Below, piece by piece: positions 6,311-59,220 of a DNA stretch of 64,000 bases. Where the stretch lies: positions 4,029 through 68,028 of the forward strand of contig DAOWKC010000002.1 of assembly GCA_030640025.1 (NCBI GenBank). The letters are read 5' to 3'. Position numbers and translations under genes: made by a program. Within the stretch, counting starts at the first letter, position 1. Every line of letters starts with the position of its first letter. This DNA is from Candidatus Woesearchaeota archaeon. Its GTDB lineage: Archaea > Nanobdellota > Nanobdellia > Woesearchaeales > JAGLXL01. The notes beneath the pieces are model-generated. The model saw only the letters and a program-made list of their open reading frames with translations. It did no database searches and had not been told where the DNA came from.

Positions 6311-8074
6311 ATGTGTGGTATTATTGGTTATAAAGGGGGCAAGAACGCTGTTAAAGTTGTTTTGAATGGTTTGAAGCGGCTTGAGTACAGAGGTTATGAC
6401 AGCTGGGGAATTGCGGTAAAAGATGGGAATATTAGAACAGTTAAAGATATAGGTAAAATTGGAGCTGTTTCTGAAGAAGATTTGAAATTGGGTTCGGCTC
6501 AGATGGCAATTGCGCACACTCGTTGGAGCACGCATGGAGAAGTTAATCAGATCAATGCTCATCCTCATCTTTCCAATAATAAAAGAATTGCAGTAGTGCA
6601 CAATGGGATTGTAGAAAATTATGTCAAGCTGCGTGAGTTTTTGAAAGAAAATAATTTTGAGTTTTATTCCGGGACTGATACAGAAGTGATTCCAAATTTA
6701 ATTGAGTTTTTTATGGAAGAAGGAGTTAGTTTTAAGGGAGGTGTTTCTAAGGCTTTGGCAATGTTAGAAGGGAGTTTTGCAATTGTAGCAATGCATCAAG
6801 ATTATCCTGAAATAATTGGGGCTCGAAATGGAAGTCCATTAGTGGTAGGCAGAAACAATGGTGGATTTTTTATTGCTTCTGATGTACCAGCTTTTTTAGA
6901 TTTGACCAATGAGGTTTGTTATTTAGATGACAAGGAAATGGTAATTGTTGGTGAAGGAATTGATTTTTTTGATTTGAGTGGAGTTAAGAAGGAAAAAGAA
7001 TTTCAGTTTATTGACTGGACACTTGAGCAAGCTGAGAAAGGAAATTATGATCATTTTATGCTGAAAGAGATTATGGAGCAGAAAGAAACTATCAAGAAAT
7101 CAATTGAACAAGATGATAAAAAAATTTTAGAGATGGCTGATTTGATTAAAGAAGGTTATGGGGTTTTTTTTGTGGCTTGTGGAACTGCTTCGTATGCGAC
7201 CCGCATTGGCGGTTATTTATTTTCTAAGATTGCCAAGAAGCACGTCAATGTAGTTTGTGGTTCGGAGTTTCCTTATTACAAAGATTTTTTGACAGATAAA
7301 ACTTTGATGATAGTTGTTTCACAGAGCGGTGAGACAGCTGATACAATTGGAGCGGTCAAAGTGGCCAAAGAAAAAGGTGTTAAAGTTCTTTCGATAGTTA
7401 ATGTGATGGGTTCGACTTTGATGAGAATGGCTGATTATTCTTTTTTAACGAATGCTGGTCCTGAGATTGGGGTGGCTTCGACAAAAGCGACCACAGCTCA
7501 AATTGCACTTTTGACTTTGCTGGCTTATGCTTGTAATGGCGGTCTTGAGGAGGGCAAAGAAGTTTTGAAGAAGTGTGTTGAAGAGTCACAAGAATTGTTT
7601 GATTCTAAATTTGTTGACAAGATTGAGGGGCTGGCAGATAAGATTGTGAATTATAATGACATTTATGTAATTGGCCGCGGCACTAATTTTCCTGTGGCTT
7701 TAGAAGCAGCGCACAAAATCAAAGAGGTTTCTTATATTCATGCTGAGGGTATGGCTGGCGGTGAATTAAAGCATGGAACAATTGCTTTGATTGATAAGGG
7801 AACACCATGTATTTGTATGGTTTCTAATGATGAAGCTAAAAATGACATTATTTCAAATGCCATGGAGATAAAGTCTCGAGGTGGATTTATTATTGGTATT
7901 TCTCCAGAAGACAATGAGATCTTTGATTTTCATGTTAAAGTACCAGATGTAGGCGAGGCATCAGCCATTGTTAATTTAATTCCAGCGCAGATGCTGGCTT
8001 ATTATTTGGCGGTAAAGAAAGGTTTTAATCCAGACTTTCCTAAAAACCTTGCAAAATGCGTAACAGTCAAATGA
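6311..8074 (+). CDS. glmS: glutamine--fructose-6-phosphate aminotransferase (isomerizing)
   Basis: MCGIIGY N-terminal nucleophile, a GATase class II domain, and two SIS domains. 587 aa. Confidence 0.9.
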   Translation: MCGIIGYKGGKNAVKVVLNGLKRLEYRGYDSWGIAVKDGNIRTVKDIGKIGAVSEEDLKLGSAQMAIAHTRWSTHGEVNQINAHPHLSNNKRIAVVHNGIVENYVKLREFLKENNFEFYSGTDTEVIPNLIEFFMEEGVSFKGGVSKALAMLEGSFAIVAMHQDYPEIIGARNGSPLVVGRNNGGFFIASDVPAFLDLTNEVCYLDDKEMVIVGEGIDFFDLSGVKKEKEFQFIDWTLEQAEKGNYDHFMLKEIMEQKETIKKSIEQDDKKILEMADLIKEGYGVFFVACGTASYATRIGGYLFSKIAKKHVNVVCGSEFPYYKDFLTDKTLMIVVSQSGETADTIGAVKVAKEKGVKVLSIVNVMGSTLMRMADYSFLTNAGPEIGVASTKATTAQIALLTLLAYACNGGLEEGKEVLKKCVEESQELFDSKFVDKIEGLADKIVNYNDIYVIGRGTNFPVALEAAHKIKEVSYIHAEGMAGGELKHGTIALIDKGTPCICMVSNDEAKNDIISNAMEIKSRGGFIIGISPEDNEIFDFHVKVPDVGEASAIVNLIPAQMLAYYLAVKKGFNPDFPKNLAKCVTVK

Positions 8075-17739: not shown

Positions 17740-17752
17740 TTTTGGGAAAAAA

Positions 17753-17867
17753 AGCACGGGATGGGATTCGAACCCATGAATAACCGGGATCTGCATATCA
17801 CAGCCCAAAAGCTCAACATCCCAGATTGATTGCAGCCGGTCCCTTTAGACCACTTAGGCACCCGTGC
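17753..17867 (-). tRNA. tRNA-Cys(GCA) with a 41-nt intron at the canonical 37/38 position
   Basis: Reverse-complement features: acceptor GCACGGG/CCCGUGC, anticodon stem ACCGG/CCGGU, loop CUGCAA[intron]C (anticodon GCA), T-arm AUGGGUUCGAAUCCCAU, discriminator U. Confidence 0.75.
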
Positions 17868-17876
17868 TTGAAAAAC

Positions 17877-18013
17877 GGACCCGAGGGGACTGTCAAGCTG
17901 GCGCTTTCGGTCGTTGTCGACCTTGTCGCCAACTATTTGAACCCCCGATCTACAGCTTAGAAGGCTTTAGCGGGATTTTTCCTGTCGCCTTATCCAGACT
18001 AGGCTACGGGTCC
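17877..18013 (-). tRNA. tRNA-Arg(TCT) interrupted by two non-canonical introns (about 17 nt in the anticodon stem near 30/31, about 46 nt in the T-loop near 59/60)
   Basis: The reverse complement starts GGACCCGUAGCCUAGUCUGGAUAAGGC and ends GGGGGUUCAAAU[46 nt]CCCCUCGGGUCC. Removing GAAAAAUCCCGCUAAAG gives anticodon arm ACAGC-CUUCUAA-GCUGU (anticodon UCU). The spliced length is 74 nt with a perfect cloverleaf. Confidence 0.6.
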
Positions 18014-31827: not shown

Positions 31828-32148
31828 TTATGGGTAGGCTAGACATAGCTTATCTGGTTTGGAAAGGCTAGGCTGGATCGTTAGCCGTGATCTATAACCA
31901 CAAATTGGCTATATGGTGGAGCTGAAATCCAAGAGGCGGTATATTTTACTGGCTATTGGCCTTGACCTTACCGTCGAAGCCCTGTCCTATAGGATTGTGG
32001 CTATGTGAATCGCATCAGGCCAGGAATGGAGCAGTGCTTAGCGTAGTTCTCAATGTTTATAGGGTCGCAGAGTGGAGGTGGGTTTAAGGATTAACCAATA
32101 GTTGGTTAATGTATCCACTTTTGGATGTGCCCCATAATACCATGAACA
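31828..32148 (+). ncRNA. ffs: signal recognition particle RNA (7S / SRP RNA)
   Basis: TATA box TTTTATAAAGGG at 31801, about 25 nt upstream. Conserved helix-8 apex CAGG-CCA-GGAA-UGG-AGCAG (compare the E. coli 4.5S CAGGUCCGGAAGGAAGCAGC): a GGAA tetraloop on a 3-bp stem flanked by the symmetric loop. The 5' GGUUAUGGG pairs with the 3' CCCCAUAAUACC (helix 1/5 closure). Length about 320 nt. Confidence 0.6.
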
Positions 32149-32236
32149 AACAAATTTACCTGACGTCTTGTGGAGCACAACCCACTGGACAAGTCCTCAC
32201 GCAGGATATTTAAAAGATAAATTCTTATTAAATTTC

Positions 32237-32974
32237 ATGAATAAAATTAAGTATGAGAGATTTGAAAATATTATTATAGAAAATGGATTAATGAGAGTAG
32301 CAAGGTCTCCTCATAAATTAAAAATCCCTGTTTTAGATTCTGATTTGGCTTATTTGACTGGATATCATTTGGGTGATGGCTATCTGGAGGATATTGAAAA
32401 AACATATGGGAGAGGAGAACAAAATTATGAAATTACTTATGGTGATTTTGATTTGGAACAAATCAAGTTAGTTAGTTTGATTATCAAAGATAAATTTGAT
32501 TTTAATTTAAGAGTTTTCAAAAGGAAAAATACTAATATGTGGGTTGGCAAGGCTGGTTCATGTAAAGTTCTTCATTGGTTTTTGAATAAACAGTTAAAAA
32601 TTCCAATGGGGAAAAAGAACATAATTTCTATTCCTGGTTGGATCTTGTCTGATAGATATTTTATGAGTAATTTTTTAAGTGGTTTTTTTGATGCTGAGGC
32701 TGATATAAGTAAAACTATCAATCGTGTTGTTAATGATAAAAGGTATTTTAAAATTAGATTTCAATTAACACAGAAAGATAGAACTATTCTAGAGGAAATT
32801 AAAGAAATTTTGAAAGGAAGATATAGTATTAAATCAGATATCCAAAGAAAATGGAATCAAGATGTATTCATTCTTAGATTTGTTGGGAAAAAATCCTCAT
32901 TAATTTTTCAAAAGAAAATAAATTTTAGAAATCCTACGAAAAGAAAGAAACTTGATTTATTGTTAAGAGACTGA
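32237..32974 (+). CDS. free-standing LAGLIDADG homing endonuclease-like protein
   Basis: Two LAGLIDADG motifs: LAYLTGYHLGDGY and FLSGFFDAEADI. Start placed at MNKIKYERF, because the upstream extension of the ORF overlaps the SRP RNA 3' end. Confidence 0.7.
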   Translation: MNKIKYERFENIIIENGLMRVARSPHKLKIPVLDSDLAYLTGYHLGDGYLEDIEKTYGRGEQNYEITYGDFDLEQIKLVSLIIKDKFDFNLRVFKRKNTNMWVGKAGSCKVLHWFLNKQLKIPMGKKNIISIPGWILSDRYFMSNFLSGFFDAEADISKTINRVVNDKRYFKIRFQLTQKDRTILEEIKEILKGRYSIKSDIQRKWNQDVFILRFVGKKSSLIFQKKINFRNPTKRKKLDLLLRD

Positions 32975-38067: not shown

Positions 38068-38134
38068 TTTTCTTCGAAAATGCGGGCATGTAAAAATCCG
38101 TTCCGGATTTTTGAGCCCCCATTCACTTCGTGAA

Positions 38135-38233
38135 TGCGGGAGACGGGGTTTGAACCCGCGCAGGCACTAAGCCACTAGGCTTTTGCTGATGACATCCTCA
38201 ACCTAGCCCGTTTGACCACTCCGGCACCCCCGC
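38135..38233 (-). tRNA. tRNA-Leu(GAG), class II, with a 15-nt canonical intron
   Basis: Reverse-complement features: acceptor GCGGGGG/CUCCCGC, 3-bp D-stem, anticodon stem CUAGG/CCUAG with loop UUGAGG[intron AUGUCAUCAGCAAAA]G (anticodon GAG), long variable arm UGGCUUAGUGCCUGC, T-arm GCGGGUUCAAACCCCGU. Confidence 0.75.
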
Positions 38234-38284
38234 GAATATAATGAGTGGGGACCAGGAAAACTTGTTTTTCGCTGCCCCGTGTGT

Positions 38285-39079
38285 TTACTTGAGGAGTTTA
38301 GCCAACTCGTCAAGACGGTTGATGAGCATGTCAGCAGCAGTATCCAGGATTTGTTTTGGGTCAAGTTGACCCCAACTTTCAACGTGAAAAACAAAATTAT
38401 TGATATTTTCGATTTGAGCGCCTAATTTTTCCAAAGATTCGATGCAAGCTTCATAATTAAGACTTTGGAGCAAAGCTTCATGATTAATTTTAATTTTGTT
38501 GCCAGCTAATTGGAAAACATTTTTATCAATCCTAACCAAAGCTTGCTTGTCTTCGTTTTTTAATTTGGAAGCATCGAATTTAATTGATGGTTCGTGTTTG
38601 TAAAAAACTAAACCAGGCGAGTATTTAGCATGATTCTTGCCTTGGCCTAAAACAGCTGTAGCAACTAGTTCTAATTTTTGTTTAGCTAAGAGCTTGACAA
38701 CAGGCATGTCTGGATAAACAAACTTACATTTAGGGTCTTTACTCTGAGCATCTGAAGCAGTGACAATGCCTCTCTTGCCTGTTTTGAGGATAATTTTTAA
38801 TTGGCATTTAGCACAGCCAGCACCTTTGCATGAGCATTCTTCTGGTAAATCATAGCTTTTGAGATCGGTTTTGATTGGCATTAATCCTAAACGGTGAGCT
38901 ACAATTTCGTCATATAAAGCTGAGCTGTTATCATGGAATTCAACTTCTTCGATGGCTAAAACAGGGACTTCGTCCATGGCAAAACACCTAATAACATTAG
39001 CAAAGGCTTCGGTGGAATCTTTTAAAATAAAAGACAATTTATTGTTCTTTTTATCCAAATTTAAATTTTCAATCTTCAT
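38285..39079 (-). CDS. rpoD: DNA-directed RNA polymerase subunit D (Rpb3)
   Basis: Dimerisation domain plus the Cys-rich insertion [12 protein letters not shown]. 264 aa. Conserved position between S11 and L18e. Confidence 0.85.
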
Positions 39080-41773: not shown

Positions 41774-44395
41774 TTATTCTTTTTTGAACCTTGATTTAAT
41801 CAAAGCAAAATTAACCGGGTTCTTAATCTTCTTGCATAAAGGTTCAGGATGGCAGACATTGAAGGATTTGTAGTAGTCTGGGTGGCTGCAGTTTGGCGGG
41901 AGGATGGGTTTTTTGTTTTTGGCGCTGTTAAGCTGGCCAAGGAGAATATTTTCTCTGAGAGATTCAGGTTGATTTCTTTTGTTCCAGTCCAAGAGAAATG
42001 ATTTGATTTCTTCATGACCCCAACCGCATTTTTTTAAGAAATTAATGAGGATGAAAGTGGAACGTTTTTTGCCGTCTTCGAGTCCTTTGAGGATTCGATG
42101 AATGCAAGGAGGAAAGCAATTTTCTGGAATGGCATTTTCTGGTAAAGGCATTTCTCGTCTTTGGATTTGTATTTCTTCTTCTGGCATTTTGAAATCAAAG
42201 GCTTGAACTAGCAAGGATTTGGCTTCATTAGGTTGGGCTTTTTTGTCAAGGAAAACAAACTCTGAAACTGGGCAGCCTGGTTTGGCCTGGTTTTTGGTGA
42301 ATTCTAATATTTTTTTGGGGTTGATGGGTATGGAGACAAGACCTGATTTTTCATGTAAAGAATAAGGAGCACGGTAAAGGTGTCTCGATGAAATTAATAA
42401 GGTGTCGATTTCTAAAAAAGGTTCAACATCTAAAGCAGGGATTTGTTCACCAAATTCATTTCTTTGGTAGCGGATAATATTTTTGGTTTCCAGGCCGGTT
42501 TTTTCCTTGATTTTGTTGAAATCACTATTTTCTAATTTGAGGATTTGCCGGCTGAGCGGGTTTTTGATTTTTTCAGTAATGTAGAAAGCGATCCTTCGGG
42601 GTGCTTCGGGAAAAAGGTCTTTTATTTCTTGGTTATTGATTTTTTCTGGAAAGGCTTCAAAAGGAACAGCAATATGGAAGCCTTTGTTGCCAGAATTGTG
42701 CAGTAAAACAGGATAAACGCCACCAAAAAAAGCCTCAGTGTCTGATACTGAAACATCATAAACATTTTCTTTTTTACTTTTTACCATTTTTTTAATTTTA
42801 ACAGTAGCGATGTCATTATTGAACAATTTTTTGTAGTTTGAAATGATTTTCTTTGATTGATAATCATAATCAATAGATTTAGTTTTATCAAACCAGTCTA
42901 AGATTTTTTTTATTCTCTTTAGATTAGCTGATTTTTTCTTGAGACTCATCTGTTCTGTCCTGTGGTGGTTGAATTTTTTTGGTTTGATCTGATGATAGAC
43001 CTGCCTCAAGCCATCGACAGGGAAAACTTTGTCATGAGGATGTGGAGAAAATTTATTTCTTTCCCTGAAAAACTCATTTGAATTTAGTTCTGATTTAGGG
43101 ATATTCATAGTATAAACATGACTGCCTTTGAAGATGTTTCCTTGAGGTAATTCATGCTCCCTGCAAAATTCTTGATTGACAGAACACGAAATTCCATTCA
43201 ATTTAGATAGCCATACCAATTGAGTGATCAATTGATGAGAAACAGATTTTATTGTAATTGAATATTGGCCACGTTTATAACCATCTCCTCTGATGTAACT
43301 TTTTAACATCTCTTCGAAATACTCCTTAGGCAACTCCCAAGAAAACTCAGGAACATGCTTATTTTTTGCTCCCTTACCACAGCTTTTTTCAAAAAAATGA
43401 TACCATTCTTTTGAATGAATTAAGATTTGTGTCGTTTTGGGATTTGGATGTCTGATTGAAATAAATCTTTTGGTAAATCTTTTCAATAAATTAACACAAT
43501 CAGAAATATAATCTTTTTCGTCGATGTGAAAAGAAAAACCTATTTGATATATTGTTTTAGTGATATGGCCTTCAGCCAGATAGTAGCCCAATAATCTCAT
43601 TAAATCCCTGTTTATTTTAATTTCCCTTTTAGTTGGCTTTTTATTATAATCAAATTCCCAACTAAAATATTCTGGTTCTTTTGTTAGATTATTTGAACTA
43701 TTAAAAGTAATCAATTCATCAGAATCTTTTAATTCATTTACTTTTTTTTGGATAATAAAACCCCTGTTCCAGACAAAAACTGAATGGTGTTTGGTGGCTT
43801 TGATAGGTATTGTGCTATGGGCATGGTGGATTTCATAAATTTTCTCTTTATGGGTCAAATAGTCGTATACTTTAGAAAAACAAACTTTTCTTCTTTTATT
43901 TAAAGATAAAACTTGGATTTTTTTACCCGATTTATGGAGTTCGATTACTTTGGCAATCGGAACAAGACTAATAGTTTTATCTGTTTTTATTAGTAAGGGT
44001 GTGTCTCCAGTAACACTAAATTTGATAGAATAAGATTTGATTTTGTTGTAGTCAAGGAATTTGATGATTAAGTGAGCAGCTATTTTGGAATATTCAATGA
44101 ATTTACAGTCAATATCAAGGACAAGGTCCCAGCCAATTCTTAAGTTGTCGAGTTCTCTTTTTTTGAGGTCGGGGTTGAGTTGGAGGGGATTAAGCCAGCG
44201 TTCTTCTGAAGTATGAAAAGAAGTAGCGCCTTTTTTAGCTAATTCAAGAATATCATTAGGGTATTGTAAGATGTCAGGGCGTTTGCCGAATTTGTCTTCG
44301 TATCGAACGGTTGTTTCCCTACTTTCGACATGTTCAATCATGGCTTTTTGAATATCTTTTCTCTTGTAATGCTTGAGAAGGGTTGAGATATGCAT
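41774..44395 (-). CDS. priSL: fused archaeo-eukaryotic primase PriS-PriL (small catalytic subunit plus large-subunit Fe-S C-terminal domain), interrupted by an intein
   Basis: N-extein carries AEP motif I LVLDIDC. The C-extein starts with motif II SGNKGFHIAVP and ends with a PriL-CTD-like region CFPPCIHRILKGL...CGW...C...C (compare FPPCM of eukaryotic PriL). Extein total 432 aa. Confidence 0.8.
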   Translation of the reverse strand: MHISTLLKHYKRKDIQKAMIEHVESRETTVRYEDKFGKRPDILQYPNDILELAKKGATSFHTSEERWLNPLQLNPDLKKRELDNLRIGWDLVLDIDCKFIEYSKIAAHLIIKFLDYNKIKSYSIKFSVTGDTPLLIKTDKTISLVPIAKVIELHKSGKKIQVLSLNKRRKVCFSKVYDYLTHKEKIYEIHHAHSTIPIKATKHHSVFVWNRGFIIQKKVNELKDSDELITFNSSNNLTKEPEYFSWEFDYNKKPTKREIKINRDLMRLLGYYLAEGHITKTIYQIGFSFHIDEKDYISDCVNLLKRFTKRFISIRHPNPKTTQILIHSKEWYHFFEKSCGKGAKNKHVPEFSWELPKEYFEEMLKSYIRGDGYKRGQYSITIKSVSHQLITQLVWLSKLNGISCSVNQEFCREHELPQGNIFKGSHVYTMNIPKSELNSNEFFRERNKFSPHPHDKVFPVDGLRQVYHQIKPKKFNHHRTEQMSLKKKSANLKRIKKILDWFDKTKSIDYDYQSKKIISNYKKLFNNDIATVKIKKMVKSKKENVYDVSVSDTEAFFGGVYPVLLHNSGNKGFHIAVPFEAFPEKINNQEIKDLFPEAPRRIAFYITEKIKNPLSRQILKLENSDFNKIKEKTGLETKNIIRYQRNEFGEQIPALDVEPFLEIDTLLISSRHLYRAPYSLHEKSGLVSIPINPKKILEFTKNQAKPGCPVSEFVFLDKKAQPNEAKSLLVQAFDFKMPEEEIQIQRREMPLPENAIPENCFPPCIHRILKGLEDGKKRSTFILINFLKKCGWGHEEIKSFLLDWNKRNQPESLRENILLGQLNSAKNKKPILPPNCSHPDYYKSFNVCHPEPLCKKIKNPVNFALIKSRFKKE
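42695..44017 (-). mobile_element. 441-aa intein with LAGLIDADG homing endonuclease domain, inserted between F126 and S of the primase SGxxGxH motif
   Basis: Block A SVTGDTPLL (Ser1), block G VYDVSVSDTEAFFGGVYPVLLHN followed by +1 Ser, and LAGLIDADG motifs LLGYYLAEGHI and YIRGDGYKRG inside. Confidence 0.8.
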
Positions 44396-55297: not shown

Positions 55298-55345
55298 GAA
55301 TTTTAGAAGTTTTTTAGAATATAAAAATGTTTGGAATTGAGATTA

Positions 55346-55723
55346 TTAATACCAATCATGACCTTTTATTCCAAGAAGGATATTCAATGCACTACCTCTT
55401 ACCCGTGCTTCTGCACTTTCTCTTTCATGCCCTCTTCTTATCATTGATTCTGGTTTCCAGTAATTTTCCTTTGCTTTTTCATAAGCCTCGTTAGAATCGT
55501 AATGTTCGCGACGAGGAGGGTCAAATCCAAATATTTCAGCAACCCGGGACATTCCTGCCTTATGAGCAGCCACTGCCTTTGGATTCGAACTAATTAAAAG
55601 AAGAAAATCAAGATCATGAAGTTTATTAAAACTTTTCTTTCTTTCTTCTAGATCGACTGCTTTAGCTAGTCTATCATCAAGGATTCCGAGGATTGGATTG
55701 TTTATTCTAGTCATTTTAATCAT
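55346..55723 (-). CDS. hypothetical protein (125 aa), co-operonic with the Nudix hydrolase
   Basis: Intact ORF with an 8-nt overlap with the upstream Nudix gene. Confidence 0.35.
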   Translation of the reverse strand: MIKMTRINNPILGILDDRLAKAVDLEERKKSFNKLHDLDFLLLISSNPKAVAAHKAGMSRVAEIFGFDPPRREHYDSNEAYEKAKENYWKPESMIRRGHERESAEARVRGSALNILLGIKGHDWY

Positions 55724-56384
55724 TCAAAACATGGACTCTTTTATCTGGGGCTGGTTTGAAAAGATGTTGGAATTTTTTAACAATATACCTAACGTCGTTA
55801 GTGAAATCCTGGGGATTCTTTTTAATTTGTTTTTCAAGATCTTTTAATTCAAAAACCTGAATACCACAAGCTTCATCATCTCTGAATTTAATTGAGCCGT
55901 CATAATAGCCAATGTAAAACTGAGTCATGCTTGGTTCAACCCATTCTTTGCCTGAGCTTTCTTTTCTGGTTGATTGATAGTTATCTAAATGGATGATGGG
56001 AGTGAGGATGCCTAAAACATGGAGGTCGGCAACAGAAACACTATGTTTAAACTCGGTTGGATTGACGATAGTAGCTGGAATACCTAATTCTTCAGCGCAT
56101 TCTTTAAGTAAGGTTAAATCATAGGAATCTTTAGTGGAAACGTGACCGCCAATGGTTTTATCCCACATGTTGGAATTATCGCCTTTCCATTTTGATCTTT
56201 TTTGTAAAATAATCCTGCCGTTTGAAGTCATTAAAATAAGCCTGACGTGTTTGTGTCGGACAGAAACTTTGCCTCGCTTAGAAAATTCATGGCGCATCTT
56301 TTCATGGAGCTTCTTTTTTTCCATACTGCCGAGTAATTCGCCTTCGTAAGAATAGTAATCAATCATTTCCCGGTTAAATTTCAT
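55716..56384 (-). CDS. Nudix hydrolase
   Basis: Nudix box GGHVSTKDSYDLTLLKECAEELGI (Gx5Ex7[R/K]ExxEExGU, with Lys in place of Arg). Confidence 0.6.
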   Translation of the reverse strand: MKFNREMIDYYSYEGELLGSMEKKKLHEKMRHEFSKRGKVSVRHKHVRLILMTSNGRIILQKRSKWKGDNSNMWDKTIGGHVSTKDSYDLTLLKECAEELGIPATIVNPTEFKHSVSVADLHVLGILTPIIHLDNYQSTRKESSGKEWVEPSMTQFYIGYYDGSIKFRDDEACGIQVFELKDLEKQIKKNPQDFTNDVRYIVKKFQHLFKPAPDKRVHVLND

Positions 56385-56603
56385 TTTGATTTTCCTCTAT
56401 TTTTGATAAAATTTAAAGCAGCTAATTCAAAAAAATGAGATTTATTTCTGTAAGTTTTTGACTTCATTTCATCACGGACTTTAGTTAGAGTATCTTCGCC
56501 TACAGTTATGCTTATTTTTTGTCTCATATCATAGTATTTTATACTACTAGTATATAAATGTTTCTATTTTTAACTACTTTTGAGTGGTAAATTAAAAGAA
56601 TAA

Positions 56604-58277
56604 TCACTTAAGAAGTTCTCTTGACCTTTTGTTCAAATCAGCAAAATAACCACGGATTAACTGAGTCATCTGATGAAAATAATTGAGGGCGGTGAGGGTT
56701 TCGTCTTGTTGTTGATAAGATAAATTAATAACTTTTTTGAAGAATTCTTGAGGTTCGCCTTCGGCTAATATCCCTGGGTCGCTTTGAAACCATTTGTATT
56801 TGACAACATCTTTTTCTCCGATTTCTTTCATAGTTGTTCTGACTGAATTACCAAGAGGGATTCCTAAAATAACATTTTTACCAAATAATTTTCTGGGGGA
56901 TTTATGATGTTGGATGTCATATTCTGGTTCTTTGGTAAAGGAAAATTGGAGCTCATAGTCTGTACTACCATACGTAAACCGATGCAATTTAATTTGAAAA
57001 TATTTGTTCTCGGCTTGAAGTATAAGGGTGGCCCAACACTCATTACCTTTTCGACTTTTGAGAGAAAAATCATAAGGGGGCTTGGAATTATCTGGACGGT
57101 AAACTTTAAATTCTCTTTTCAAAATGGCGAGTTGCGATAATTCACTGTGCAAAGTTAAAAATATTTCGTGGAGACCTTTTTCACCTAAACAACGTTCCTG
57201 CAGGGCTTGATAAGTCCCTTCATTTAAGATGGTAAGTGAGGATTGGTCACGGCCGAGATTAGGTAAATCGTTTCTAATTCTGATTAATTCCTTGTATAAT
57301 TGCTCTGTGTTTTGAAGTTGTTCTGATTCTTTTTGGGAAATACATTTTCTAAAAACTTGGTTGATTTCTTCAGGGATTTTGGAGTTGATATCTGAAGGGT
57401 CGTCTTTGAAGAGACTTTCCATTGGTAATTGATTAGTAAACATTTTATAAAGAAGTGTACCAAAAGCAAAAAGGTCGTCTTGAGAAACAGGTTTGCCACC
57501 TTTTCTTTGATTAGGTGACATATATTCAAAAGTTCCGACAGCTTCTGGATTGGTTTGGGAAAGAGAAGCAACAAGGGTATGAGTTAAACTAGATGATTTA
57601 ACTGTACTCAAACCAAAATCTGTAATTTTAACTTGATCGCCAGGAGTGATGAGAACATTGCCTGGTTTTAAATCCCGGTGAATAATTGTATGGTCATGAC
57701 AGTATTTCAAAGCATCGGCAATTTGGATAAGAATATCAAGACCGTAGGCAGTTGAAATAAATTCGCCGGCCTGAGATTTTTCTTCTAAGAGGCTGTCTAA
57801 ATCTTGGCCGTCAATATATTCCCTGACAAGCCAAGGTTTTTTTTCGTGGATACCGGCATCCAGAACTTGGACAAGATGTGGGTGTTGGAATTCTTGCTTT
57901 GATCCAAGAAGAATAGCAACCTCTCTTTGAAATTGACCAACATTATTATCGATTGTATCGTTTGAAATCTTAAAGGCAAAAGTTTCTCCTGGTTTGGTTG
58001 TATCGCTGGCTTTGTAAACAGCGCCAACAGCTCCTTCGCCAATTTTTTTACCGAGAACATATTTATCAATAGTGATTAGAGTTGGTTCTTCTTGAGGGGT
58101 TTCTACTGTTGGTGGTGATTCTTCAGAAGGTTCTCCTTCTGGAAGAGGTTGGTCTTCTTCAGTTGGAGCTGGGTCTTGAGATTCTTCTGGAGAGCTTTCT
58201 TCTTCTGGAGCTTCTCCTGCCGGTGTTTCTCTTTCAGGTTCTCCTTCTCTGGGAAGCAATGTTTCTCCTTCTGGCAT
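56604..58277 (-). CDS. Hanks-type (eukaryotic-like) Ser/Thr protein kinase with an acidic Pro/Glu-rich N-terminal region
   Basis: GEGAVGAVYKA glycine loop, catalytic HRDLKPGNVLI, DFG (ITDFGLS) and APE-like motif, plus about 230 aa of C-terminal non-kinase domain. Confidence 0.8.
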   Translation of the reverse strand: MPEGETLLPREGEPERETPAGEAPEEESSPEESQDPAPTEEDQPLPEGEPSEESPPTVETPQEEPTLITIDKYVLGKKIGEGAVGAVYKASDTTKPGETFAFKISNDTIDNNVGQFQREVAILLGSKQEFQHPHLVQVLDAGIHEKKPWLVREYIDGQDLDSLLEEKSQAGEFISTAYGLDILIQIADALKYCHDHTIIHRDLKPGNVLITPGDQVKITDFGLSTVKSSSLTHTLVASLSQTNPEAVGTFEYMSPNQRKGGKPVSQDDLFAFGTLLYKMFTNQLPMESLFKDDPSDINSKIPEEINQVFRKCISQKESEQLQNTEQLYKELIRIRNDLPNLGRDQSSLTILNEGTYQALQERCLGEKGLHEIFLTLHSELSQLAILKREFKVYRPDNSKPPYDFSLKSRKGNECWATLILQAENKYFQIKLHRFTYGSTDYELQFSFTKEPEYDIQHHKSPRKLFGKNVILGIPLGNSVRTTMKEIGEKDVVKYKWFQSDPGILAEGEPQEFFKKVINLSYQQQDETLTALNYFHQMTQLIRGYFADLNKRSRELLK

Positions 58278-58352
58278 TTTTCAATTATGTTTAGAACACG
58301 CTCCGATTATGAGGTTGGCGAAGATTTAACTTATAAATCTTTCGTAATATTA

Positions 58353-58375
58353 AATGCGGGCGGCAGGGTTCCCAC
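58353..58375 (-). repeat. duplicated fragment of the 3' end of the adjacent class II tRNA (AACCCTGCCGCCCGCATTTAA)
   Basis: A 22-nt exact direct repeat of 58424..58445, placed about 50 nt beyond the tRNA 3' end. Confidence 0.6.
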
Positions 58376-58426
58376 GTCAGAACCCTTGGTTCCGACACCT
58401 CCCCTCGCTCCGCTCGGAAATTTAAA

Positions 58427-58595
58427 TGCGGGCGGCAGGGTTCGAACCTGCGTAGGCACTAAGCCAACAGATGACTTACGAATGGTTCTTCATCGCACTG
58501 CGATTGCAGCACTCTGCACTCAAATGCCTTGAGTTAAGACGACACACAGTTCAACTGTGAGTTACTGTCCCGTTTGGCCACTCCGGCACGCCCGC
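58427..58595 (-). tRNA. class II tRNA (Leu-like D- and variable arms) carrying about 84 nt of intervening sequence; anticodon unresolved
   Basis: The reverse complement has a perfect acceptor GCGGGCG/CGCCCGC, a D-arm identical to tRNA-Leu(GAG) (UGCCGGAGUGGCCAAACGGG), variable arm UGGCUUAGUGCCUAC and T-arm GCAGGUUCGAACCCUGC. An insert begins right after GACAG, at the same place as the intron in the tRNA-Arg at 17877. Confidence 0.55.
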
Positions 58596-58704
58596 ATGAA
58601 CGTAGTGAATGTGGGCACCAGGAAATCTCTGATTTCCGCTGCGCCCGCAGATAGAGTTTGAAAATTAGAAGTGGTATTTAAATTTAATTATAAAAAAAAG
58701 AAAT

Positions 58705-59220
58705 TTATTCAAGTCTGCCGAGTTTGTTTTCGATGTCAGCTAATTCTGATTCGAGTTTTTCAATGTCAGTCATGGGTTTTGGTTTTTCCATGACTGGCGG
58801 CGCTAACTTGGCTTGAGTTTCTTTAGCCACTGGTTTTTTAGCTGCTTTTTTGATGACTTTTACTTTCTTTTTCTTACTGTGTAATTTGTGGTGTTTAGTC
58901 AAGCTTTGCCTTGATTTGAATTCTTTGTCGCAGCGATCGCATTTGAAGATTTTGTGCTCTTGGTGCAGATGAATCCTTAATTTGGTTTTAGGCAAAGCTT
59001 TGCGTAATTTATTGATATAAAGTTTGAGCTGGCGAACATCTTCTCTCAAACGCTTAATGGCTTCTTGTTTTTCATTGCGAAGGGTTTTAAGTTTTTCATG
59101 CTGCTGCAAGAACTGAACCATTTCCTTTGAAGTTTCTAAAATATTTCTTCTAACTTCAAGAGGATCCTGGACACCAACGAAAAAGACTTCTTCTTTTTCC
59201 TGAGTTTTTTTCTTAGCCAT
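58705..59220 (-). CDS. coiled-coil protein with a C-terminal C2H2-like zinc finger
   Basis: FKCDRCDKEFKSRQSLTKHHKLH (C-x2-C-x12-H-x3-H). The N-terminal VFFVGVQDPLEVRRNILETSKEMVQFL domain is shared with the two upstream genes. Confidence 0.55.
   Translation of the reverse strand: MAKKKTQEKEEVFFVGVQDPLEVRRNILETSKEMVQFLQQHEKLKTLRNEKQEAIKRLREDVRQLKLYINKLRKALPKTKLRIHLHQEHKIFKCDRCDKEFKSRQSLTKHHKLHSKKKKVKVIKKAAKKPVAKETQAKLAPPVMEKPKPMTDIEKLESELADIENKLGRLE

Follow-up and report, generated by a model that had tools for sequence, protein, structure and literature searches.

The window analyzed here, 64,000 nucleotides (nt) of contig DAOWKC010000002.1 from a Candidatus Woesearchaeota archaeon, carries on its minus strand a transfer RNA (tRNA) gene of class II whose body is split by 85 nt of intervening sequence and whose 3' end is repeated a short distance downstream. 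We consider this locus, with a probability of roughly 0.78, to be a two-intron tRNA-Leu(CAA) gene that is functional in its Woesearchaeota-type (DPANN) host, with a candidate guide RNA in the second intron and insertion scars on both flanks of the gene as parts of the explanation. Judging from its sequence, the pre-tRNA would be cut by the archaeal splicing endonuclease at two relaxed bulge–helix–bulge (BHB) motifs, at positions 30/31 and 37/38, and then re-ligated, giving an 84-nt class II tRNA. A multi-intron tRNA is an already known kind of gene and a known habit of the DPANN group; the intron-borne, single-motif guide and the terminal insertions go beyond this kind and are presented as leads.

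The window is archaeal, with an Archaea_SRP RNA gene and a GC content of 36%, and the close relatives of the tRNA-Leu(CAA) gene are all labelled Woesearchaeota, Pacearchaeota or Nanoarchaeota. The tRNA and its repeat have the identical arrangement in the ENA scaffold, in NCBI assembly GCA_023132895.1 (JAGLXL010000002.1) and in an independent Logan assembly, which excludes an assembly artefact.

Read from 58595 to 58427, the gene is GCGGGCG UG CCG GAGUGGCCAAA CGG G ACAG (94 nt) CUGU UGGCUUAGUGCCUAC GCAGG UUCGAAC CCUGC CGCCCGC A, without an encoded CCA. As the initial annotation, made from the sequence alone, had stated, the acceptor stem (GCGGGCG/CGCCCGC), the D-arm, the long variable arm and the T-arm are intact. 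Its estimate of about 84 nt of intervening sequence was one short, and its description of the gene as nearly identical to tRNA-Leu(GAG) was slightly generous: the likeness is real and amounts to 58/67 outside the anticodon arm. It was also right that no single intron gives a valid anticodon arm, each combination leading to A33 or a mispaired stem. With introns allowed, the only ARAGORN result was a tRNA-Asp(GTC) with A33 and an intron of 87 nt; it is implausible and was rejected because the body is class II. In its default mode ARAGORN did not detect the gene, the Rfam tRNA model missed it both at gathering score and in a permissive E-value scan, and the permissive Rfam scan of 58300–58720 yielded nothing relevant. 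The insert begins after GACAG, and, as had been noted, the same is seen in the window's tRNA-Arg(TCT), which reads GACAG/GAAAA.

When both introns were removed in silico, the product was an 84-nt tRNA-Leu(CAA) with all stems paired, which ARAGORN folded into a perfect cloverleaf. The spliced anticodon arm is ACAGA-CUCAAGA-UCUGU, with a 7-nt loop (CUCAAGA) that has U33 and a purine at position 37. The mature sequence is identical at 81/84 positions to the spliced gene of a related locus (L104) and at 76/84 to two intronless genes (L019 and L097), with which it shares an identical anticodon arm.

Relatives were collected as 120 loci from a scan of species-representative genomes with the D-arm sequence and 28 more from a metagenome scan with the start of intron 2. 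Among the 112 non-redundant tRNA-Leu genes that were parsed, 58 have no intron, 31 have the canonical intron only, and 23 have an intron at 30/31, the first site in the window; 21 of these 23 also have the canonical intron. An extra T-loop intron was seen in eleven related tRNA-Leu genes (L089, L117, L031, L172, L173, L175, L176, L180, L047, L030 and L115), some of the related genes having three introns, at 30/31, 37/38 and in the T-loop. A hand check placed the T-loop intron at 59/60 in L089, L031, L117, L180 and L172, with a central helix UUCG × CGAA (UUCA × UGAG in L172).

The strict splicing motif, hBHBh', consists of two 3-nt bulges around a 4-base pair (bp) helix, and relaxed variants are written hBH and HBh'. 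For the central helix, we applied the rule that pairs four exon nt, ending two ahead of the 5' cut, with four intron nt that end two ahead of the 3' cut, a register that was verified on the window's tRNA-Cys and agrees with published work (PMC4090602). The central helix of intron 1, between nt 25–28 and intron positions −6 to −3, is paired 4/4 in 23/23 genes and covaries, using at least eight combinations that include GGAU/AUCC, GGAC/GUCC, GGUA/UACC, GGCA/UGCU and GGGC/GCCC. In the window, GGAC pairs with GUCU in a relaxed BHB with an outer helix of 1 bp. At intron 2, the 3' end UAAG-UC supplies the splicing helix: CUCA (32–35) pairs with UAAG (58478–58475) at 3/4 positions, and the anticodon stem forms the outer helix. 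The C34·A mismatch in this helix is common to 18/27 members of the intron 2 family described below, the window included.

These motifs suggest that both introns are spliced. Positions 30/31 and 59/60 are recognized non-canonical intron positions, and some archaeal endonucleases accept relaxed hBH/HBh' motifs (PMC4090602). For DPANN lineages, Woesearchaeota and Pacearchaeota among them, numerous disrupted tRNA genes and loop-bearing endonucleases are reported, the DPANN EndA having an L3 loop (PMC5829648). The multi-intron tRNA that the initial annotation had offered as one option was thus borne out by an architecture that yields a valid tRNA-Leu(CAA) and is conserved and covarying in relatives.

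Intron 2 belongs to a family of 27 non-redundant sequences that align well, with the consensus ACUCAAG/G-CAUUUGAGUG-YWGA-(GUGCnn...nnGUGC)-GAU-GA-A-R-...-UGUAAGUC/A, where slashes mark the exon–intron boundaries. Exon 2, ACUCAAG, is invariant across the alignment. Downstream of an antisense element, the intron contains a D'-like box followed directly by a stem, a 3-nt bulge and the GA of a C'-like box. All seven stem pairs (7/7) show compensatory changes, the GA dinucleotides of the boxes are invariant or nearly so, and D' position 1 and the second nt that follows the C'-box GA form a box pair of C-G (16 sequences), U-A (7) or another combination (3). By paired-cell and covariation measures, the structure scored above 500/500 column shuffles and above every slid register. 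Box C/D guides have RUGAUGA and CUGA boxes that form a kink-turn, and the target pairs with the fifth nt upstream of box D or D'. Intron 2 has the GA dinucleotides, the 3-nt bulge and the covarying stem of a kink-turn, and its boxes are degenerate (CAGA; GAUGAAG).

Within the antisense element, UUUGAGU can pair with A31–G37, a helix that is 98.8% paired across the 27 sequences and invariant, so that a covariation test is impossible. By hand reading, C34 pairs with the fifth nt upstream of the D'-like box; the antisense element and the D'-like box thus have the geometry of a box C/D guide for the wobble cytidine. On these grounds, we lean somewhat towards intron 2 acting as a guide for 2'-O-methylation of C34. 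It would be a one-motif box C/D guide that marks C34 either in the pre-tRNA or after excision, possibly as a circular intron. Since the same anticodon-loop nt serve both the guide fold and the splicing fold, the two must alternate. No C/D family of Rfam was matched at the locus. In Pyrococcus, trans-acting box C/D RNAs are aimed at position 34 of the Leu(CAA), Leu(UAA), Met and Trp tRNAs, the guide for tRNA-Trp being its own intron, which guides Cm34 and Um39 (PMC7994747). Fibrillarin and Nop5 are near-universal archaeal single-copy markers (PMC9258230). By hand reading, the Leu(CAA) intron's arrangement of D'-like box, stem and GAUGA also occurs in a related tRNA-Leu(UAG) intron (L006), whose antisense sequence, CAGGUAU, would put C39 at the guide position, reminiscent of Um39 in tRNA-Trp, and whose box pair is a C·C mismatch.

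Downstream of the gene, the 22-mer GAACCCTGCCGCCCGCATTTAA (also written GAACCCUGCCGCCCGCAUUUAA), which covers the end of the tRNA and its trailer, occurs in exactly two copies with a period of 72 nt, confirming the repeat that the initial annotation had placed about 50 nt further on. Within the 64 kilobases (kb) it is not a common word: there is no third copy, matches were found in 0/100 shuffles, and the chance expectation is 0. The repeat can be extended to 30 nt at 90% identity, and no distant copies were found in the related loci that were fetched. The first copy (A1) is complete, with a T-rich trailer of its own. The spacer (B) between the copies, GC-rich by eye, was also considered as a decayed tandem tRNA copy, which was rejected when its alignment to the tRNA proved no better than that of shuffles (p = 0.47 global, 0.90 local). 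GUGG before the second copy (A2) makes GUGGGAACCCUGCCGCCCGCA the inverted counterpart of an element upstream of the gene, X1. We infer that the duplicated 3' end, instead of belonging to the tRNA, marks the distal limit of a 50-nt insertion immediately downstream of the gene.

X1 is a hairpin with the plus-strand sequence TGAAC-GTA-GTGAA TGTGGGC ACC AGGAAATC-TCT-GATTTCC GCTG, bounded by an 8-nt direct repeat, CGCCCGCA, at 58589–58596 and 58642–58649. When the promoter was aligned with that of the closest relative (L089), the TATA box and the ACTTCTARTTTT motif were kept, with a gap of about 53 nt that equals X1 plus one 8-nt repeat. The distance from the TATA box to the first nt of the tRNA would be 26 nt with X1 removed, and it is about 26–30 nt in relatives. 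The gap and this spacing identify X1 as an insertion.

The window's tRNA-Leu(GAG), which sits in an S13-S4-S11-RpoD-[tRNA]-L18e-L13-S9 operon, is flanked in a similar way by elements X2 and X3. From the rpoD stop to this tRNA there are 0–10 nt in relatives versus 51 nt in the window, and from the tRNA to the L18e start 8–30 nt versus 67 nt. Its leader, GGUCCCCACUCAU, is complementary to its trailer, GUGAAUGGGGGCU, at 12/13 positions. In three of the four insertions, the adjacent tRNA terminus recurs as a short direct repeat that clearly marks the boundaries. All four lie 3' of CCCGC(A/G) on the strand displaying this motif, and hence are inverted at the gene 5' ends and direct at the 3' ends. 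The orthologous sites in relatives are empty; the insertions are lineage-specific, and similar flanks were found at none of the three other tRNAs in the window. The initial annotation had recorded neither the insertion 5' of tRNA-Leu(CAA) nor the pair around tRNA-Leu(GAG), nor the kink-turn and antisense element of intron 2, nor the anticodon CAA.

A covariance model for the X elements was dropped, the four sequences aligning poorly, and blastn-short was used instead. An X1 homolog was found in L094, placed between tRNA 3'-end copies. One to three additional 3'-end copies, 65–282 nt downstream, occur at about 15 of 135 related tRNA-Leu loci, and in five genomes (L185, L189, L046, L039 and L119) the distal copy is preceded by a hairpin of a second family. 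The hairpin of these five loci, located just downstream of tRNA-Leu (at about 7400–7600 on the minus strand of L039), has a covarying stem and the form GGUUGAUAAGG-stem-loop-CCUUAUGYG. After it, L039 has the 3' part of another tRNA-Leu (its acceptor is CGCCCAC) with a 75-nt T-loop insert, which could be a relic or half of a split gene. Tandem partial tRNA-Leu 3' ends were seen in L121 (four copies, 94-nt period, each unit a variable-arm/T-arm-like segment with a 40-nt T-loop insert) and in L094, L163 and L189 (three copies each).

Table 1. Features of the window, with positions counted from its first nucleotide.
Feature	Position	Strand	Description
tRNA-Leu(CAA) gene	58427–58595	−	169 nt including two introns; hand parse, and ARAGORN on the spliced product
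Exon 1	58565–58595	−	Positions 1–30: acceptor 5' strand, D-arm, anticodon stem nt 27–30 (ACAG)
Intron 1	58535–58564	−	30 nt, non-canonical position 30/31, UAACUCACAGUUGAACUGUGUGUCGUCUUA
Exon 2 (micro-exon)	58528–58534	−	7 nt, ACUCAAG, positions 31–37, anticodon CAA
Intron 2	58473–58527	−	55 nt, canonical position 37/38
Antisense (putative guide) element CAUUUGAGUG	58517–58526	−	In intron 2; UUUGAGU pairs with A31–G37
Kink-turn module	58488–58516	−	Covariation in the 27-sequence alignment
D'-like box CAGA	58516–58513	−	In kink-turn module
Stem-loop GUGCUGC-AAUC-GCAGUGC	58512–58495	−	In kink-turn module
3-nt bulge GAU	58494–58492	−	In kink-turn module
GA, then AG	58491–58490, then 58489–58488	−	Part of C'-like box
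Exon 3	58427–58472	−	Positions 38–73: A38, UCUGU (3' strand of the anticodon stem), variable arm, T-arm, 3' strand of the acceptor, discriminator A
Repeat copy 1 (A1)	58414–58443	−	Last 17 nt of tRNA (from T-loop G57) and trailer; exact 22-mer at 58443–58422
Spacer B	58372–58421	−	50 nt; 9-bp hairpin GUCGGAACC-AAG-GGUUCUGAC at 58396–58376
Repeat copy 2 (A2)	58342–58371	−	Exact 22-mer at 58371–58350; preceded by GUGG
X1	58597–58641	+	45-nt hairpin insertion between promoter and tRNA 5' end
TATA-like box TTTAAATA	58675–58682	−	26 nt upstream of distal GCGGGCG copy, 79 nt upstream of real tRNA 5' end
tRNA-Leu(GAG)	38135–38233		
X2	38068–38134		Downstream of tRNA-Leu(GAG); hairpin element bounded by partial repeat of tRNA end
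X3	38234–38285		Upstream of tRNA-Leu(GAG); X1 homolog ending in a weak partial copy only (hand reading)
tRNA-Arg(TCT)	17878–18012	−	Directly upstream of tRNA-Cys; acceptor GGACCCG/CGGGUCC; two non-canonical introns
tRNA-Cys(GCA)	17752–17868	−	Canonical 41-nt intron
Archaea_SRP RNA gene	31860–32134		
Free-standing LAGLIDADG-domain reading frame	32168–32974	+	Immediately downstream of SRP RNA gene
DNA primase large-subunit gene	41774–44395	−	Intein with LAGLIDADG domain

A number of observations speak against this interpretation of the locus. The inner helix of intron 1 in the window (CACAG/CUGUG) opens with an A·C mismatch and its central helix has a G·U pair; at intron 2, the central helix has the C34·A mismatch and the inner helix is weak. 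A strict BHB scan of the pre-tRNA recovered neither the 30/31 nor the 37/38 site, only spurious ones; the A·C mismatch makes the intron 1 motif a relaxed one, which such a scan misses. Genes for the splicing endonuclease, RtcB ligase, fibrillarin, Nop5 and L7Ae were all absent from the 64-kb window, as was any integrase or transposase gene. The guide duplex has only 7 bp, where about 8–12 nt are usual, and being invariant cannot show covariation, and when the alignment was inspected by hand, a second C/D motif (RUGAUGA/CUGA) was absent from intron 2 and the adjacent exons. Archaeal box C/D ribonucleoproteins normally require this second motif. As for the insertions, spacer B has no homolog among about 150 related loci (blastn-short), the elements are low-copy, and the repeat lengths differ (about 8, about 15 and 22–30 nt), a misfit with one simple mechanism.

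The imperfect splice motifs in the window genome are also what a pseudogene might show, that is, a tRNA-Leu disrupted by inserted DNA with loss of tRNA production, and the failure of standard finders, which miss or mis-call the gene, and the 53-nt structured leader now between promoter and gene point the same way. We nevertheless regard a pseudogene as very unlikely indeed. The stems of the spliced product all pair and its identity to a relative is high, the inserts lie exactly at conserved intron sites with conserved junction sequences, intron 2 retains every conserved element of its family, and there is no other tRNA-Leu(CAA) in the 64-kb window. The disrupted gene that had been suggested initially finds no support, the exons being intact and the mature sequence matching a relative's at 81/84 positions.

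We favor reading the flanking insertions as scars that some recombination or insertion process aimed at tRNA-Leu termini left behind. The process would target the acceptor-end sequence CCCGCA, alike on both strands at the two gene ends. The initial annotation had raised a relic of tRNA-targeted integration, and part of that idea stands: the repeat resembles an attachment (att) site and relatives have empty sites. The spacer of only 50 nt and the lack of an integrase or a third copy in the window, and of a match to a viral attP, tell against it, and for the repeat it is no more than a possible reading. Specifically, the repeat pair would be the attL and attR of a tyrosine-integrase element (virus or plasmid) in the tRNA-Leu 3' end, its body lost to a 50-nt stub, a scenario that we keep in view although the odds are against it. 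The direct repeat covers the T-loop to the trailer, like classical tRNA att sites, and brackets an insert; the duplication recurs at tRNA-Leu in about 15 of the 135 loci, with conserved hairpins immediately upstream of the distal copy in the five genomes named above; about 3.1 kb of extra genes separate the tRNA from the RNase J gene, its direct neighbor in relatives; and tRNA disruption by integration has been proposed for Caldiarchaeum (PMC3293823). However, no integrase was found in the window or within 6 kb, there is no element body, and neither the 64 kb nor any fetched locus has a further or distant copy. Viral attP scans with GAACCCTGCCGCCCGCA and GGAAATCTYTGATTTCC gave only unrelated matches and TTAGTGCCTACNNNGGTTCRAAYCC gave none, no viral-contig match having a tRNA context. 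The repeat pair does not enclose the extra 3.1 kb, whose base composition is ordinary, the inverted insertion at the 5' end is left unexplained, and the distal fragment in L039 comes from a different tRNA-Leu, which is unexpected for a simple att exchange.

That all insertions are found 3' of CCCGC(A/G), in inverted form at the gene's 5' end and in direct form at its 3' end, would also suit miniature relatives of single-strand transposons (IS200/IS605-derived or REP-like) that insert 3' of CCCGCA on whichever strand shows it. The element end would repeat the target, and a guide, GUGGGC, 5' of the hairpin would be complementary to it. Each element has a small left and a larger right hairpin, with a complement of the tRNA end before the right one (GUGGGC in the window, GUGGGGAAG in L094). 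Yet the elements are only 45–52 nt long and very low-copy, being seen in the window, L094 and partly L038 in about 1 Mb of related loci, and the window has no TnpA, TnpB or RAYT gene. The complementarity, at 6/7 pairs, is not significant (shuffle p 0.1–0.2 per element) and is absent from most other spacers, and a 3'-side repeat of 22–30 nt is too long. A transposon origin of this kind appears unlikely to us. Nor did significance emerge for a general "minihelix" model, in which every spacer would hold a complement of the acceptor 3' strand. Less likely still is that the flanking elements are functional RNA, whether as a leader–trailer processing stem, as an alternative 3' exon joined by a T-loop splice (a proto-intron) or as tRNA-like punctuation at mRNA ends. 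Leader and trailer can form an 18-bp helix around tRNA-Leu(CAA) (z = −3.85 for the 326-nt fold) and, by hand pairing, one of about 13 bp around tRNA-Leu(GAG), whose ribosomal-protein/RNA polymerase operon is a place where protected mRNA ends would be useful; related genes have 59/60 introns with perfect central helices. No leader–trailer BHB rose above chance at either Leu gene, however, and the processing stem was rejected. The same applies to A2 as an alternative 3' exon: in the window, the central helix of a 59/60 splice to it (UUCG × UGGG) would include three wobble pairs, a hand check showed that such a splice fails in L110 and L121, and A1 is complete with its own trailer. The elements are entirely absent at orthologous sites in relatives, and the true acceptor strands could be subject to mispairing with the additional copies of GCGGGCG/CGCCCGC. 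We thus rank a generic recombination or insertion scar first, followed by the stub of an integrase element, the miniature single-strand-transposon-like hairpin and functional RNA. More tentatively, and with a combined claim that we would sooner doubt than assert, intron 2 in Woesearchaeota-type archaea may be a minimal, circularly permuted, single-kink-turn C34 guide, and the hairpin insertions may be footprints of a process at tRNA-Leu ends able to seed T-loop introns or 3' halves.

The region between tRNA-Leu(CAA) and the RNase J-like gene (55300–58340, about 3.1 kb) encodes a Ser/Thr kinase with a Pro/Glu-rich N-terminus, a 48-residue reading frame, a NUDIX protein and a 125-residue reading frame, and a test for a compositional island in it was negative. 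In many relatives, the RNase J gene follows the tRNA immediately, and a AATTCCAAAC promoter region is conserved. The tRNA-Arg(TCT) gene was unannotated and was missed by both ARAGORN and Rfam. Its first intron, of 17 nt, is in the anticodon stem; positions 28/29 to 30/31 are possible, the best central helix, GGCG × CGCU, favoring 28/29. The second, of about 44–46 nt, is in the T-loop. The neighboring tRNA-Cys(GCA), whose canonical intron has a perfect 4/4 central helix (CUGC × GCAG), is not the tRNA-Arg of the initial annotation. The anticodon/intron region of tRNA-Leu(GAG) (38184–38200) and the 3' end of the rpoD coding sequence (38323–38339), on the same transcript strand, are 88% complementary over 17 nt, which may be due to chance. 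Over the whole window, the plus strand is asymmetric, with 13970 G versus 9287 C and 21865 T versus 18878 A.

Standard annotation misses both tRNA-Leu(CAA) and the two-intron tRNA-Arg, so that genomes of this group seem to lack essential tRNAs; the two-intron solution restores tRNA-Leu(CAA). If the intron kink-turn does guide Cm34, it would be a second, independently organized tRNA intron that modifies its own tRNA, and its single C/D motif would bear on the minimal needs of archaeal box C/D ribonucleoproteins and on why tRNA introns persist. The tRNA-Leu terminus insertions, with their empty sites, are a tractable data set on how archaeal tRNA genes gain introns, fragments and splits; if the underlying process does seed T-loop introns or 3' halves, this would be tRNA gene disruption caught in the act.

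Among known systems, the multi-intron genes of Thermoproteales, such as the Pyrobaculum tRNA-Pro(UGG) with introns at 25/26, 37/38 and 56/57, likewise combine canonical and non-canonical BHB-type introns in one gene (PMC4090602). With these and the disrupted tRNA genes of DPANN archaea, tRNA-Leu(CAA) shares a listed intron site, 30/31, relaxed hBH/HBh' motifs and being missed by standard finders (PMC4090602, PMC5829648). Unlike the Thermoproteales cases, its host is a Woesearchaeota-type DPANN archaeon, its middle exon has only 7 nt, the 30/31 plus 37/38 architecture is common to a set of tRNA-Leu(CAA/UAG/UAA) genes, with covariation, and some relatives gain a third, T-loop intron.

The flanks recall the att duplications of archaeal integrative elements (SSV-type and pNOB8-type integrases) and the model for the Caldiarchaeum tRNA-Thr, in which, as here, foreign DNA directly downstream of an intact tRNA gene is enclosed by a direct repeat of that gene's 3' part (PMC3293823). 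In our case, however, the bracketed DNA is 50 nt long and gene-free with no integrase nearby, there is a mirror-image insertion at the 5' end, and a second tRNA-Leu, in an operon, is flanked alike. Split and permuted tRNA genes (Nanoarchaeum equitans, Caldivirga maquilingensis and Cyanidioschyzon merolae) similarly have an extra tRNA 3' segment beside a tRNA gene and leader–trailer complementarity, whereas tRNA-Leu(CAA) is contiguous and complete, has no leader–trailer BHB, and has a second 3' copy without a usable T-stem 5' strand.

The closest parallel to intron 2 is the intron of archaeal pre-tRNA-Trp (Haloferax volcanii; sR50 in Pyrococcus), which is also at the canonical position and has a kink-turn and an antisense sequence to the anticodon loop (PMC7994747). 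In both, the wobble C34 falls at the guide position, and the guide and splicing folds are mutually exclusive. The trans-acting guide for tRNA-Leu(CAA) in Pyrococcus has the same target nucleotide as that predicted for intron 2 (PMC7994747). Intron 2 differs from the tRNA-Trp intron in having one kink-turn instead of C/D plus C'/D', and in its order of D'-like box, stem-loop and C'-like box, which would make a terminal C/D unit only when circularized. Its boxes are degenerate (NNGA; GAUGAAR), its guide is 7 bp, its host tRNA is Leu, and it is known from sequence alone.

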